Of a DNA stretch of 64,000 nt, positions 2,030-50,980 are shown piece after piece. This DNA comes from Dehalococcoidia bacterium. GTDB taxonomy: Bacteria; Chloroflexota; Dehalococcoidia; UBA2979. Under the pieces are notes generated by a model. The model was not told the DNA's origin. It saw only the letters and a program-made list of their open reading frames with translations, and ran no database searches. A program made the position numbers and the translations under genes. The DNA is taken from NCBI GenBank assembly GCA_963692775.1, contig OY839116.1, positions 1,701,601 through 1,765,600 on the forward strand, written 5' to 3'. How positions within the stretch are numbered: position 1 is the stretch's first letter; every line of letters begins with the position of its first letter.

Positions 2030-2587
2030 ATGACGACCGAGACCTCGACGAAGCTGATGACGGCGGACGAGTTGCTGCGGCTCGGCGATGACGCGCGCGG
2101 CGAACTGATCCGGGGAGTGTTCTGCGAGATGACGCCGACGGGAGCCGAACACGCCGAGATCTCAGCGAGACTGACCATCCGGCTGGGCGTGTTCGTCGAG
2201 CCGCGCCGCCTGGGGCGGCTCGCCGTCGGCGACATGGGCGTCTGGCTCGAGCGCGACCCTGACACCGTGCGGGCGCCCGACATCGCCTTCACCGCGGCGG
2301 AGCGCAGCCCACCCGGCCCCCCGATCACGGGTTACGCGGAGGTCGTCCCCGACCTCGCCGTGGAGGTGCGCTCGCCGAACGACAGCCGCCGCGAGGTCCA
2401 CGACAAGGCGCTGATGTGGCTGAGCCACGGCGTCCGGCTGGTCTGGGTCGTCCACCCCGACACGCGCACCATCGACGTGCACCGCGCGGAGGGCGCGGCG
2501 GCCACGCTGGGGGAGGACGGGGCGCTGGACGGCGGGGACGTGCTGCCCGGCTTCAGTTGCCCCGTCAGCGCCGTCTTCGAGGCGTAG
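2030..2587 (+). CDS. Uma2 family (DUF820) endonuclease
   Basis: MTADELL...GELIRG...H...RAPDIAF...PDLAVEVRSP...GVRLVWVVHP motifs; GGAGG upstream of ATG 2030. Confidence 0.9.
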   Translation: MTTETSTKLMTADELLRLGDDARGELIRGVFCEMTPTGAEHAEISARLTIRLGVFVEPRRLGRLAVGDMGVWLERDPDTVRAPDIAFTAAERSPPGPPITGYAEVVPDLAVEVRSPNDSRREVHDKALMWLSHGVRLVWVVHPDTRTIDVHRAEGAAATLGEDGALDGGDVLPGFSCPVSAVFEA

Positions 2588-2781
2588 CCAGTCCGGTATC
2601 GCCTCCCTCGCTGCCTTCGGACAACGGCCACCAGCCGCTGCGGTAAGCGCGTGCGGGCGCGGCGGGCTGCCCGGCGGCGAGGTTGCGCGCGGCGCGTGCA
2701 TGCGGCGAGGATCAGCGCCGGGCCGCGCGTCACGCCTCGCGGCCCTCGACCCGCCGCCTCCGGAGGGAGAGCCGCCGCGCC

Positions 2782-3516
2782 ATGAGCAAGCTCCGCGACC
2801 GCATCCGCCGCACCTTCCAGCGCCGCCCCGGCCCGCTCGGCTTCGCGCCGCGCAACCGCCAGGCCGACGAGCACCGCTACGTGATCGTGATCGCCGAGGT
2901 CGCCGGCGCCGCCGCCGCCTCCGCAGCCGCCGAAGCGGGCGCCGACGCACTCCTGCACTCAGCGGGCCTCGACGGCATCGCGGCCGTGAGCGAGGCCGCG
3001 GGCGACCTGCCCGTCGGCGCGCGCCTCGAGGCCGCCGCGGGGGGCGACGCCGACGCACTGATCGAGGCGGGGGCGGACTTCCTCGTCTTCGACGACGCAC
3101 AGACCGAGGCCGCCGCGCTGCTGCGCGACGACCTCGGCCACGTCGCGCTGCTGGGCGACGCCGACGCCTCCGAGGAGGAGCTGCGGCTGCTCCAGCCGCT
3201 CGACCTCGACGCGCTGCTCGTGCCGCCGAGCGCGGGGGCGCTCAGCGTGCGCGACCAGCTGCGCACGCGGCGCATCGCCGAGCTGACGCGCAAGCCGCTG
3301 ATCGTTCCCGTCGCGGCGGGCGTCTCCACGGAGGAGCTGCGCATCTGGCGCGACGCCGGAGCGCCGGTCGCCCTCGCCGGCGGCGACGCGGGCGGCCTCG
3401 AGGCCGTCATCGCCGCCGCGCGCGAGGTGCCCGCGCCGCGCGAGCGCCGCGAGGAACGCCCGGACCCGCTGCTCCCCTCGTCCGCCGCCCCCGCCGACGA
3501 CTTCGACGACGACTAG
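2782..3516 (+). CDS. Conserved hypothetical protein, possible aldolase/TIM-barrel-like fold
   Basis: MSKLRDRIRR..PLGF start; alternating beta/alpha pattern with AGADALL and AGADFLVF. Confidence 0.55.
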   Translation: MSKLRDRIRRTFQRRPGPLGFAPRNRQADEHRYVIVIAEVAGAAAASAAAEAGADALLHSAGLDGIAAVSEAAGDLPVGARLEAAAGGDADALIEAGADFLVFDDAQTEAAALLRDDLGHVALLGDADASEEELRLLQPLDLDALLVPPSAGALSVRDQLRTRRIAELTRKPLIVPVAAGVSTEELRIWRDAGAPVALAGGDAGGLEAVIAAAREVPAPRERREERPDPLLPSSAAPADDFDDD

Positions 3517-3576
3517 CGCGAGGTCGCCTCGCGCCTCGCTGACTCCGGGGCGCGGTTGGGGTGGGCTAGAATCTGA

Positions 3577-5784
<2,208 letters not shown>

Positions 5785-16389: not shown

Positions 16390-17181
16390 ATGAGCGACGA
16401 CGGACAACTGATCATCGAGGAGCGCGACCGCATCGCGTTCGTCACCTTCAACCGGCCCGAGAAGCTCAACGCCTGGACGTTCGAGATGAGCACCGAGCTG
16501 CGCGAGTACCTCTGGGGCCTCAACGAGGGCGACTACCGCATCCGCTGCGTGGTGATGACCGGCTCCGGGCGGGCCTTCTGCTCGGGCGCGGACGTCGGCA
16601 ACCTCGCGGCGCGGCAGGGCGGCGAGCGGCCGCCCTGGCGTCCACCGCACCCGGAGGCGCACATCACCGAGGCGCTGCGCCGCTGCAACGCGCCGGTGAT
16701 CGCCGCGATCAACGGCTACGCGCTGGGCATGGGCCTCGGCATCGCGATGGCCTGCGACATCCGCATCGCCGCGGACGACGCGCGCTTCCAGGTGGCGCAG
16801 ATGAAGCGCGGCCTCACCGCCGACACCGCGCTCGCCCACTCGCTGCCCGCCGCGATCGGCGCCGAGCGCGCGATGGAGCTGATGTTCACCGCGCGCATGA
16901 TCGAGGCGGACGAGGCGGAGCGGATCGGCCTCGTGCTGAAGGTCGTGCCCGCCGACAACCTGCTCGAGGAGGCCGAGGCGCTGGCGCGCGAGATCGCGAA
17001 GAGTGGCCCGCTCGGCGTCGCCGCCGCGAAGCGCACCGTCTACCTCCGCGACGACGACGCCTTCCAGCGCGCGCACGACTTCCTCGGCCTGACGATGGAC
17101 CGCCTCTTCTTCACCGAGGACGCCCGCGAGGGCATCCAGTCCTTCGCCGAGCGCCGCGAGCCGGAGTTCCCCGGCCGCTGA
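16390..17181 (+). CDS. Enoyl-CoA hydratase/isomerase family protein
   Basis: NRPEKLNA, AFCSGAD, IAAINGYALG, ACDIRIA, F.ERR.P.F. Confidence 0.92.
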   Translation: MSDDGQLIIEERDRIAFVTFNRPEKLNAWTFEMSTELREYLWGLNEGDYRIRCVVMTGSGRAFCSGADVGNLAARQGGERPPWRPPHPEAHITEALRRCNAPVIAAINGYALGMGLGIAMACDIRIAADDARFQVAQMKRGLTADTALAHSLPAAIGAERAMELMFTARMIEADEAERIGLVLKVVPADNLLEEAEALAREIAKSGPLGVAAAKRTVYLRDDDAFQRAHDFLGLTMDRLFFTEDAREGIQSFAERREPEFPGR

Positions 17182-17205
17182 CGGCCCGCCTCGCCCCTCC
17201 GGCCC

Positions 17206-17236
17206 CTCCCTTCCGGCCCCCTCTCCTGGGGGAGAG
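17206..17236 (+). repeat. Left part of CCCTCTCC-GGAGAGGG palindromic repeat, split by IS110
   Basis: 31 nt identical to 18910-18940. Confidence 0.9.
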
Positions 17237-17257
17237 ACTCCCCATGGTGCTAAGGCG

Positions 17258-18481
17258 TCAAGCGGCGAGCTGCTCGCGGTCGCGGCGGTGCGCCCAGGCG
17301 GTGGCCTCGTCGTAGGGGCGGCGCGTCCTGAGGCAGCCGTGGAGGTAGCCGACGAGGCGGTTGCCGAGGGCGCGCAGCGCCTGGTGGTGGAGGTCGCCGG
17401 CGGCGCGCCGCCGCAGGTAGAAGTCGTAGCAACCGGGGCTCGCCTGTAGCGCGCAGAGCGCCCAGCGGTCGGCGGCGTCGGCGAGCCGGCGGTTGCGCAC
17501 GAAGCGGGCGCGCACGCTGCGTTTGCGTCCCGATGCTACGGTCAGCGGCGAGGTGCCGGCGTAGTTCCTGCGGGACTTCGCCGACGCGTAGCGTTCGGGG
17601 TCGTCCCCGAACTCGCCGAGCACCCGGGCGCCGAGCACGAGACCGAGTCCGGGCAGGGAGCGGTAGAGCGCGGCGTCCGGGTGCTGCTCAAAATGGTCCG
17701 CCAGTTCGGCCTCGAGTGCGGCGATCTGCTGGTTGATCTCGCTGATCTGCCCGACCGTCGCGCGGGTGCTCGCGGCGAAGGCCCGGCTCACCACCTCCGA
17801 CACCTCGAGCTGCGGGGAGCGCAGCGCCTCGCGGACCGCGGCGGCGCGCCGCTCGAGGTTGCGCCGGCGGCCGCCGCGGCGGAGCGCGGCGCGCAGCCGG
17901 GTGCTGCTCAGCCGCGCCGCCTCGCGCGGGCCGGGCGCCGTGGCCAGCACGCCGAGGGCGTCGCCGTGGGCGAGCTTGGGAAACGCCCGCAGGGCGGCGG
18001 GAAAGTACTCCCTGAGGGCGTTGCGCAGGCGGTTGGTCTGGCGCGTGCGGTCCCAGATCAACTGCTGGTGCGCACGGGCGAGGATGCGCAGCGCGGCGGC
18101 CTCGTCAGTGTCGCCGGCGACCGGCCGGTGGTTGTGGCGGTCGGTGCGGACGAGGTCGGCGAGCAGCTTCGCGTCGGCGGCGTCGGACTTGGCGCCGCCG
18201 AGGTGGTGGCGCTCGCGGTAGCGCGCCGCCGAGCGCGGGTTGATCGCGTAGACGCGGTAGCCGGCGGCGAGCAGCGCCGCGACCCAGGGCCCGCGGTCGG
18301 TCTCGATGCCGACCACGACGTCGCCCGGGTCCGCGGCGTGCCGGGCGACCAGCTCGTGCAGCGCGGCGACGCCCGCGACGCCCTCGGGCAGCCGCTTGGC
18401 GGCGAGCCGCGCGCCGGCCTCGTTCATGAAATGGACGTCGTGGTGGTCCTCGGACCAGTCGTCGCCCACGTAGAGGGTCAT
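17258..18481 (-). CDS. IS110 family DEDD transposase/recombinase
   Basis: YVGDDWSEDHHD, GIET, KSDAAD (DEDD RuvC-like); SLPGLG...GEFGD..RY...YAGTSP..ASG Tnp domain; AAGGAGG RBS. Confidence 0.96.
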   Translation of the reverse strand: MTLYVGDDWSEDHHDVHFMNEAGARLAAKRLPEGVAGVAALHELVARHAADPGDVVVGIETDRGPWVAALLAAGYRVYAINPRSAARYRERHHLGGAKSDAADAKLLADLVRTDRHNHRPVAGDTDEAAALRILARAHQQLIWDRTRQTNRLRNALREYFPAALRAFPKLAHGDALGVLATAPGPREAARLSSTRLRAALRRGGRRRNLERRAAAVREALRSPQLEVSEVVSRAFAASTRATVGQISEINQQIAALEAELADHFEQHPDAALYRSLPGLGLVLGARVLGEFGDDPERYASAKSRRNYAGTSPLTVASGRKRSVRARFVRNRRLADAADRWALCALQASPGCYDFYLRRRAAGDLHHQALRALGNRLVGYLHGCLRTRRPYDEATAWAHRRDREQLAA

Positions 18482-18524
18482 CGTCTCAGTGCCTCCTTCG
18501 CTTCGTGCTGCCGGCTGCGACCCG

Positions 18525-18722
18525 CCGGGCTGGTCCCGCGACGGCCTAATGGAACAGTGCTCGCGGGCACGACACCCCATGAGTGCTGCGGACCACCCGG
18601 ACGCACCGGCCGGGGCGCGGTCTCTCCCGAGAGATCCAGAGGTCTCAGGGCGAGGAAGTGCTCACCGGCCGGCGGGCCCCGGACCAGTCTCCCAGATCGC
18701 TCCGGGGTTCTGGTCGAACCCC
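18525..18722 (-). ncRNA. Putative bridge RNA of the IS110 element
   Basis: 5' hairpin plus two internal loops with segments matching target (18647-55, 18622-28) and donor junction (18571-81, 18546-52). Confidence 0.82.
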
Positions 18723-18839
18723 ATTAGGGCGGGGGTGAGGGGGCTCGCCATTCGCTGCTACGAGCATCGATCGGTTGTTGCGCCCCCGGCGGCTCGTGCC
18801 CTGCGGGCGTCGGACGAGCAGGCGCTGCGCGCCGCTCGG

Positions 18840-18868
18840 CTGGATTCCGGCTTTCGCCGGAATGACGG
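18840..18868 (+). repeat. REP-like palindrome CTGGATTCCGGCTTTCGCCGGAATGACGG, copy 1
   Basis: 29 nt identical to 50981-51009; hairpin ATTCCGGC/GCCGGAAT. Confidence 0.9.
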
Positions 18869-18909
18869 AGGGGGAGGCGGAAGGACGGGGAGGGAGAGAC
18901 CGGCCGCCG

Positions 18910-18957
18910 CTCCCTTCCGGCCCCCTCTCCTGGGGGAGAGGGTTGGGGTGAGGGGGC
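18910..18957 (+). repeat. Intact CCCTCTCC-GGAGAGGG-GGGGTGAGGG repeat
   Basis: Matches the reconstructed IS target; related copies at 50871-50903 and 25746-25783. Confidence 0.88.
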
Positions 18958-19042
18958 ACGCCGGACTCCCGAGGACGCACGCACGCCCATTGGCTGCCCT
19001 GCCCCTCGCGCCCCAATGGCCTTGAGGTGAGCGAGGGCCGCG

Positions 19043-19840
19043 TCAGTAGTAGATCGCAGTGCCGGGGCCGCCGCCCGTGGCGATCGCGTCCCCGTTGATC
19101 GAGATTGACTTCGGGGAGGCGAGGAAGGCGACGACCCAGGCGACCTCGCGCGCGTCGACGAGGTGGTGGATCGAGTTGCCCTCGGCGAGTCGGCGCTCGA
19201 CCTCCTCCTCCGCCTCGCCCGCCTCGACGCGCGCGGCGATCATCTCCGCCGTGCGCTCGGTGCGGGTGCCGCCGGGGTGGACGACGGTGACGTTGATCCC
19301 GTCGGGCCCGAGCTCGTTCGCGAGGTTCTTCGTCAGCGCGGCGACGCCGACGTTGCGGATGCTGCCCGAGGTGTTGCCGGCGCGGCGCGCGCCGAGGCCG
19401 GAGACGTTGACGATCCGCCCCCAGCCCTGCTCCCGCATGATCGGCGCGACCGCCCGCGCGGTCCGCAGGTAGCCCAGCACCTTCACCTCGATGTCCGCGC
19501 GCACGTGATCGTCGCTCAGCTCCGCCAGCGGGACGGGCGGCAGCGCGCTGCCCGGCGAGGCGGCGTTGTTGACGAGGATGTCGATCCGTCCGAACGCCTC
19601 GTGCGCCGCCCGCACCATCGCCCGCACCGAGGCGTCGTCCGAGGTGTCGGCGGTCAGCGCCAGCACGCGGCGCCCGCTTTCCCCGGCGATCCCGGCGGCG
19701 GTCGCCTCCAGCGCCTCGCGCCCGCGCGCGACGGCCGCGACGTCGGCGCCCTCGAGGGCCAGTTCGCGCGCCACCGCCTTGCCGATGCCGCGGCTCGCGC
19801 CGGTCACGATCGCCACCTTCCCCGTCAGCTCCAGGTCCAT
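19043..19840 (-). CDS. SDR family oxidoreductase
   Basis: TGASRGIG, DILVNNA, GRIVNVSG; lacks canonical YxxxK. Confidence 0.92.
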   Translation of the reverse strand: MDLELTGKVAIVTGASRGIGKAVARELALEGADVAAVARGREALEATAAGIAGESGRRVLALTADTSDDASVRAMVRAAHEAFGRIDILVNNAASPGSALPPVPLAELSDDHVRADIEVKVLGYLRTARAVAPIMREQGWGRIVNVSGLGARRAGNTSGSIRNVGVAALTKNLANELGPDGINVTVVHPGGTRTERTAEMIAARVEAGEAEEEVERRLAEGNSIHHLVDAREVAWVVAFLASPKSISINGDAIATGGGPGTAIYY

Positions 19841-50870: not shown

Positions 50871-50903
50871 CCCCTCTCGCCGAGGGAGAGGGAGGGGGTG
50901 AGG
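50871..50903 (+). repeat. CCCTCTC-GAGAGGG-GGGGTGAGGG repeat copy
   Basis: CCCCTCTCGCCGAGGGAGAGGGAGGGGGTGAGG. Confidence 0.8.
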
Positions 50904-50980
50904 GAGTCCGGGCCACGGTGCGCCAGCGGAGCCTGTTGCGCCATCGGCGCTCTTGGGGGTTCAGCGGTGGGCGGGCGTGC

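Follow-up and report, generated by a model that had tools for sequence, protein, structure and literature searches.

IS621 from Escherichia coli, the closest described counterpart of the element treated here, is an insertion sequence (IS) of the IS110 group that encodes a DEDD and Ser recombinase and whose left end, ahead of the recombinase gene, carries the bridge RNA (Durrant et al. 2024, PMC11208160; Hiraizumi et al. 2024, PMC11208158; PDB 8wt6). Target and donor are each served by one loop of this RNA, and in both loops a left guide addresses the bottom strand and a right guide, followed by handshake bases, the top strand. Its core is CT, its natural target is a genomic repeat, and a promoter is predicted only across the joined ends. 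Counterparts of these features, with some doubt over the Glu of the DEDD tetrad, stand at positions 17237-18727, on the minus strand, of a 64,000-nucleotide stretch of a Dehalococcoidia genome (the window; assembly GCA_963692775.1, contig OY839116.1, positions 1,701,601 to 1,765,600). This block is a complete 1491-bp insertion sequence, and we put the probability at roughly 0.9 that it is an intact IS110-group element that moves by bridge-RNA-guided recombination. That reading is carried by the anatomy and limits of the element, the identity of the insertion site in 12 of 12 copies, an empty orthologous site, covariation between guides and flanks among relatives, and conserved catalytic residues.

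The element differs from IS621 in its host (Chloroflexota, class Dehalococcoidia), in a protein that is matched to IS621 by profile only, in a left guide that relies on wobble pairing, in a site of 14 bp (7+2+5) rather than 11 bp, and in a target that is not the repetitive extragenic palindrome (REP) of E. coli type. It also resembles the Pseudomonas putida elements ISPpu10 and ISPpu9, which, in the available portions of their descriptions, are multi-copy with every copy in one intergenic stem-loop repeat family (10.64898/2026.03.19.712850; PMC12288879). The accessible part of the ISPpu10 preprint (10.64898/2026.03.19.712850) already describes a natural G·U wobble at the left guide, a left guide that is tolerant and a right guide that is strict, as well as a junction promoter with its -35 box in the right end and its -10 box across the junction, all of which have parallels here. 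In that same part of the text ISPpu10 has its stem-loop on the 5' side of the site, and the left target takes part in it, whereas here the core and right target themselves form the 5' arm of the repeat hairpin. A further difference from ISPpu10 is that the present element is known from its sequence alone. ISPpu9 belongs to a group in which the RNA lies downstream of the gene.

A downstream RNA, the seekRNA, is also found in the IS1111 group, which shares the DEDD transposase family and RNA-guided choice of site with our element, as far as the accessible text of its description goes (Siddiquee et al. 2024, PMC11187229). It differs from that account: here the RNA region lies upstream of the gene, with 243 nt of non-coding DNA before it against 21 nt after the stop codon, and we noticed no subterminal inverted repeats. 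The layout is thus that of the IS110 group, not the IS1111 group. A search of the accessible literature found no paper on IS110 together with Dehalococcoidia. The locus is a clean but ordinary case of the mechanism described in 2024, and it involves no new mechanism.

The host genome is a single contig of 3.22 Mb with 71.6% G+C, and a blastn search of it returned 12 full-length copies of the element, 99.46-100% identical and sharing the same two ends. In the window, 17237 is the first and 18727 the last position of the inserted block; AG, which is CT on the minus strand, occupies 17235-17236 and again 18726-18727. The copies begin with CTAATGGGG and run to ...CCATGGGGTGT, after which comes CT; the right end reads CCATGGGGTGT in 11 of 12, and there are no terminal inverted repeats. 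The left end CTAATGGG is invariant in all 31 aligned relatives. Every one of the 12 copies lies at the same CT of one hairpin repeat family, reading on the element strand ...CCCTCACC[C/T]C[A/G]CC, then CT-AATGGGG...CCATGGGGTGT, then CT-CTCCC.... The first-pass annotation of the window, made from the letters alone, had named other copies in unrelated targets, or with different boundaries, as the observation that would speak against it; boundaries, repeat and position within the repeat are the same in 12 of 12.

The limits are also fixed independently of the copies, by two genomes of the same genus, G009 (locus L082) and G001 (locus L085), whose orthologous sites are empty. There the flanks of the window abut with a single CT, exactly as in the window minus the element, and the gene to the left of the site is 93-95% identical. 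The first-pass claim that deletion of 17237-18727 restores the repeat is thus borne out by natural sequences. Another candidate for an empty allele was rejected: in a comparison of X1, X2, X4 and X5, one contig each in X1 and X4 has a joint that skips 17236-18726, and the shorter side of that joint is 24 nt, so that it could derive from any empty copy of the repeat.

The repeat that the insertion splits is a short, GC-rich imperfect palindrome with 252 profile hits in the genome, 124 of which span the site. Its right part occupies 17206-17236, on the minus strand like all features described here unless otherwise stated, and comprises the CT core (17236-17235), the right target CTCCC (17234-17230) and the remainder of the hairpin. 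Its left part, at 18728-18750 by reading of the sequence, holds the left target CCCCGCC (18734-18728) preceded by CCCCCTCAC. An empty sister copy lies nearby at 18910-18957, with an 8-bp hairpin (CCCTCTCC/GGAGAGGG) and the left target CCCAACC, which has one C·T mismatch and two wobbles against the guide. The 31 nt at 17206-17236 are identical to 18910-18940, and from 18728 the repeat resumes as in the sister copy, with 2 letters different. A further empty copy, at 50884-50904, has the left target CCCCTCC and one G·A mismatch. On the minus strand these two empty copies read CCCAACCCT (18939-18947) and CCCCTCCCT (50889-50897). A 21-nt pattern for the repeat core matches 3 times in the window, against 0 expected from 100 shuffles, and the repeat copies of the window sit between two convergent genes.

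These details agree with the first-pass description, which placed an IS110 element at the CT core of a hairpin repeat and an empty copy of that repeat next to it, and all the letters that it quoted stand where it placed them. Its statement that the target is a repeat family other than E. coli-type REP also stands, and no RAYT gene was found: a search of the single-contig genome, 94.9% complete, with PF01797 (Y1_Tnp) gave 0 matches, and the same search as a control was positive in 6 of 14 reference genomes.

The transposase gene, or bridge recombinase gene, at 17258-18481 encodes 407 aa plus a stop codon, has the ribosome-binding site GAAGGAGG upstream, and is intact in 12 of 12 genomic copies by a check of open reading frames. 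Its product has an N-terminal RuvC-like domain (PF01548, DEDD_Tnp_IS110, residues 6-162, 5e-39) and a C-terminal domain (PF02371, Transposase_20, residues 274-356, 6.4e-10), and it scores 198.6 bits against the NCBIfam model NF033542, 'IS110 family RNA-guided transposase', which has a cut-off of 140. A search of the PDB with the single sequence gave no match up to E 10, and a profile built from 13 relatives matches the IS621 transposase (8wt6) with E 2.1e-12 and that of ISCro4 (9t56) with E 2.3e-12; one relative, L060, was left out of the protein alignment, as it has a stop codon in frame. ISCro4 is the second solved IS110-group recombinase matched in this way, and the likeness to it is one of sequence match. 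In the profile alignment to 8wt6 the Asp of GDD corresponds to that of GID, the two Asp of KSDAADA to the Asp pair of KTDTVDA, and the Ser of ASG to that of ESG, all of them invariant in the 13 relatives. The catalytic residues of IS621 are taken from the available portion of PMC11208158.

The upstream non-coding region, 18482-18727, would encode the bridge RNA, as judged from an alignment of 31 relatives and their consensus fold. Its first 245 nt, counted from the start of the element, are the same in all 12 copies, and no position below IS position 654 varies among them. The left target guide, CCUCGCC followed by the core-binding CU, lies at 18647-18655 and matches the left flanks of 12 of 12 copies with 0 true mismatches and 1-2 wobbles. 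It has the polarity of the top strand of the left target, so it would pair with the bottom strand. The right target guide occupies 18620-18628 and consists of GGGAG, the core-binding AG and the handshake bases AC; its reverse complement gives GT-CT-CTCCC, the sequence at the right junction of an inserted element. All 12 copies have CTCCC as their right flank. Over the 7+2+5 positions of the site, and with wobbles allowed, none of the 12 sites has a true mismatch to the target guides. These assignments follow the polarity given for IS621, bottom-strand pairing for the left guide and top-strand pairing for the right (PMC11208160, available portion).

The donor guides follow the same plan. The left donor guide CAUGGGGUGUC at 18571-18581 has the sequence of the terminal 10 nt of the right end followed by the first core base (C), and it is conserved in relatives along with their right ends. 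The right donor guide at 18545-18552 consists of CCAUU, the core-binding AG and one handshake G; its reverse complement is C-CT-AATGG, as found at the left junction of the inserted element. The handshake bases fit the rule given in the available portion of PMC11208158, by which they pair with non-cognate DNA after strand exchange and not with cognate DNA before it. Behind the right target guide, AC is complementary to GT at donor positions 6-7, the two bases that close the right end, and not to CC at target positions 6-7. Behind the right donor guide, G is complementary to C at target position 7, where the left target ends, and the base after this G is unpaired.

Along the element strand the guides come in the same order as in IS621, and hairpins separate the left from the right guide in both the target and the donor part. 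The small hairpin between the target guides (GAGA...UCUC, 18631-18646) has 4 pairs, 3 of which show 9-13 double-sided compensatory changes among the 31 sequences (columns 110-113/125-128). The whole target-binding loop spans 18605-18673, with an outer stem of IS positions 55-70 paired with 110-123, and RNAalifold reports compensatory pairs at alignment columns 82/153, 83/152, 94/143 and 95/142. The consensus fold of the 31 left ends has 42 pairs, 12 of them with compensatory changes, mostly in this closing stem and in the hairpin between the guides. The hairpin of the donor loop is invariant among the 31 left ends and hence uninformative for covariation.

Joining the ends of a typical copy in silico produces a candidate promoter. 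The -35-like box TTGACG lies in the right end at 17256-17261, where it overlaps the stop codon of the transposase gene, and in the joined sequence TTGAC(G) is followed by an 18-nt spacer and a -10-like TCTAAT that spans the right end, the core and the left end. The relatives whose right ends were compared have TTGAC there as well. The copy in the window has a right-end substitution that is unique to it among the 12 (GGGGAGT for GGGGTGT; T to A at the third-last base, 17239, column 1489 of the comparison). It falls in the left donor and creates a mismatch to the left donor guide, and it may hamper excision of this copy.

Further support for RNA guidance comes from relatives whose guides have changed. 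One genome per species was scanned, giving 80 related loci, and both flanks could be parsed in 66 of them, which represent 20 guide types. Their transposases share 76-88% identity with ours where the metagenome-assembled genome is titled Dehalococcoidia, and 64-70% in Actinomycetota. Alignment of the left ends is good, with near-invariant donor guides and two hypervariable target guides that track the flanks. Cognate guides pair with the commonest flank of their own type at 10.05 of 12 positions, against 5.50 of 12 for non-cognate combinations, and the total over the 20 types (201 of 240) was reached by 0 of 10,000 shuffles. Positions 1-4 of the right guide are Watson-Crick paired in 19-20 of the 20 types and the fifth in 10 of 20, and the left guide pairs best at the three positions next to the core. 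Wobble pairs number 15 at the 140 left-side positions and 0 at the 100 on the right. Retargeted relatives illustrate the rule, with guide CACGA-AG beside flank CT-TCGTG and guide GTTGT-AG beside CT-ACAAC. The mechanistic parallel to IS621 and its REP targets that the first-pass annotation had drawn is thus upheld by target and donor guides, handshake bases and the covariation of guides with flanks.

Several points weigh against this reading. In the protein, the invariant Glu of GIETD stands 2-3 columns off the catalytic Glu of IS621, which HMMER places as an insert, although the motif context fits. Among the relatives, L006 and L008 combine the right flank AACCC with a GGGAG guide, and the left flanks of L017 and L049 pair poorly with their guides. 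Folded as a single sequence, the left end does no better than its shuffles (z -0.77), a comparison that is uninformative at 72% G+C, and no Rfam family was found in 18482-18727 (a scan of 16500-19500 with E up to 1 gave 8 matches, all elsewhere). Neither the RNA nor a circle has been observed, and the public runs with this DNA are contigs, which are unable to show a circle or an RNA end. The repeat profile used in counting occupied and empty sites (below) was made from occupied sites, which biases which empty copies are counted. Because repeat copies, like element copies, are related among themselves, the Fisher and shuffle figures treat them as more independent than they are; the counts are also small. 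Finally, the degree of fit among compatible copies does not predict occupancy.

The profile was built from the 12 restored occupied sites, and after one hit adjoining the element was dropped it gave 123 empty full-length copies. With wobble allowed, 36 of these are compatible with the guides and 87 carry a true mismatch, so that occupancy stands at 12 of 48 compatible copies and 0 of 87 mismatched ones (Fisher 1.5e-6). A subfamily of about 19 copies with CT-CCCCC in place of CT-CTCCC, which gives an A·C mismatch, includes no occupied member. From such counts one could suppose that site choice is set quantitatively by left-guide pairing, the best-pairing copies filling first, and the first-pass annotation had proposed something similar in holding that the occupied copy fits the left guide best. 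What stands of this proposal is that both empty copies in the window have one true mismatch and that no mismatched copy is occupied anywhere in the genome. The quantitative part does not stand, for CCUCGCC-CU against the occupied CCCCGCC-CT itself has one G·U wobble, 36 compatible copies are empty, and these include the two copies whose left match is fully Watson-Crick.

The distribution of wobbles leads the same way. In 10 of the 12 occupied sites an A stands opposite the guide G, giving a G·T wobble rather than a perfect pair. Copies of this A type, with two wobbles (one for CCTCACC), are 10 occupied and 10 empty, against 2 occupied and 21 empty for the G type with one wobble (Fisher 0.005; 0.011 when the tandem pair described below is counted once), although the G type pairs better. 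A mechanistic preference for A at the third base before the core was considered and rejected as a rule, since G031, which has the same left guide, trends the opposite way: 0 of its 12 elements are at an A-type site, and 9 A-type and 25 G-type sites are empty (p 0.087). A quantitative filling order is accordingly improbable. Guide compatibility sets which copies can be hit, and the degree of fit does not predict which are; we read the A/G bias as history or local context and not as a pairing rule.

It might also be that the transposase recognizes the repeat directly, through protein-DNA contacts or the shape of the hairpin, and that the complementarity of the left end is incidental. The target is indeed a hairpin with an 8-bp stem, the relatives that hit the repeat all keep the same right guide and hairpin arm, and a stem-loop at the target raises the insertion efficiency of ISPpu10, according to the accessible part of its preprint (10.64898/2026.03.19.712850). 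Yet relatives with transposases 64-88% identical to ours insert in unrelated flanks that form no hairpin and that fit their own changed guides, and the pairing seen over the 20 guide types was matched by none of the 10,000 shuffles. We regard direct recognition as very unlikely; target structure may supplement guidance by RNA but cannot take its place. Hardly any credence remains for the idea that most of the 12 copies go back to duplicated or recombined blocks of repeat plus element, with a shared site that was inherited and not chosen: two copies do stand in tandem (2373548-2375038 and 2375183-2376673, 144 bp apart, flanks 96-98% identical) and in three the left flanks are 88-93% identical over about 100 nt, but outside the tandem pair the flanks beyond the repeat core are unique or about 78-93% alike, most right flanks being single-copy, against 99.5-100% identity within the element, which marks the copies as separate insertions, and the site in the window is empty in two sister genomes.

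The tandem pair belongs to an array at C1:2373548-2376823 that consists of a repeat unit, the element, a 144-bp unit, a second element, and a unit with an empty compatible site. It may have arisen through two insertions into repeat units already in tandem, or through joint duplication of the element and one unit. Elsewhere, three empty copies of the repeat (C1:1879446 on the plus strand, 919714 and 1200423 on the minus strand) have an extra CT at the insertion point (left target-CT-CT-CTCCC), together with an A-type left target and flanks like those of the most often occupied subfamily. We set aside a reading of these as footprints of excision, as (CT)3 variants of the repeat also occur in relatives and slippage is simpler. 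An exact copy of the first 40 nt of the left end stands alone at C1:1397500-1397539 with no element attached.

The favoured reading, RNA-guided recombination, suggests the following cycle for the element. By analogy with the described systems, and with support from motifs, it would be excised as a circle, whose joined ends would assemble the TTGAC(G)/TCTAAT promoter and so drive expression of both bridge RNA and transposase. The 243-nt left end would be transcribed into a bridge RNA with two loops, of which the donor loop (CAUGGGGUGUC ... CCAUUAG) would hold the circle at the point where its right and left ends are joined. The target loop (CCUCGCC-CU ... GGGAG-AG) would hold the 14-bp site CC[C/T]C[A/G]CC-CT-CTCCC, made up of the left flank and the 5' arm of a GC-rich hairpin repeat with more than 100 copies. 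The DEDD/Ser recombinase would then exchange strands at the shared CT core, so that CT would stand on both sides of the element and nothing else would be duplicated. Wobble pairing of U and G in the left guide with the two polymorphic positions of the repeat would let one RNA address at least 3 sequence variants, with copies that carry a true mismatch left unused.

Whether the U and G are themselves selected is a separate matter. Three lineages of elements in sister genomes (L001-L007, L014-L023 vs L024-L038) have the U-rich left guides CCCCUCC, CCUUGCC and CCUCGCC and insert mostly at CCCCGCC-CT-CTCCC, and the perfect complement of CCCCGCC, the commonest target, is used by none of the three. 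In the CCCCUCC lineage, 4 of 7 parsed insertions have a U·C mismatch at the fifth position, so this position seems tolerant there. It is conceivable, although we consider it rather unlikely, that the U and G of our element are an adaptation and not drift, a degenerate guide that reads C/T and A/G and colonizes several repeat subfamilies. If so, natural bridge RNAs would tune the breadth of their targets through wobble on the bottom-strand guide only.

Other observations at the locus concern its surroundings more than its mechanism. In the same intergenic region of a genome of the same genus (L088, G011, 2560-3844) there is a related element, 89.6% identical over 1248 nt, which lies about 250 nt further on and adjoins a repeat copy in the opposite orientation; its right flank AACCC does not fit the guide GGGAG, as in L006 and L008. 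Within the transposase gene, the Rfam family Ms_AS-4 ('Actinobacteria sRNA') matches the antisense (plus) strand at 17576-17657 with 72.2 bits against a gathering score of 50, and this family may simply model a conserved stretch of IS110-family transposase genes. A second hairpin repeat, of the GGATTCCGGC...GCCGGAATGAC type, lies at 18841-18872 between the occupied and the empty target copy, with 9 exact and 79 loose hits (up to 4 mismatches) in the genome. The bin that holds it has summed word depths of 9,500 to 243,000 in metagenome contigs, against tens elsewhere, and this second repeat is accordingly common to very many organisms of those samples.

The locus provides a well-resolved natural example of bridge-RNA targeting outside the Proteobacteria, with an active-looking element in 12 copies, a full set of guides and an empty orthologous site. 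Its close relatives with drifted or reprogrammed guides give access to natural rules for guide lengths, for tolerance of wobbles and mismatches and for the role of the target hairpin, and such rules feed the engineering of bridge recombinases. For the organisms themselves, the element explains part of the repeat-rich architecture of these Dehalococcoidia genomes.

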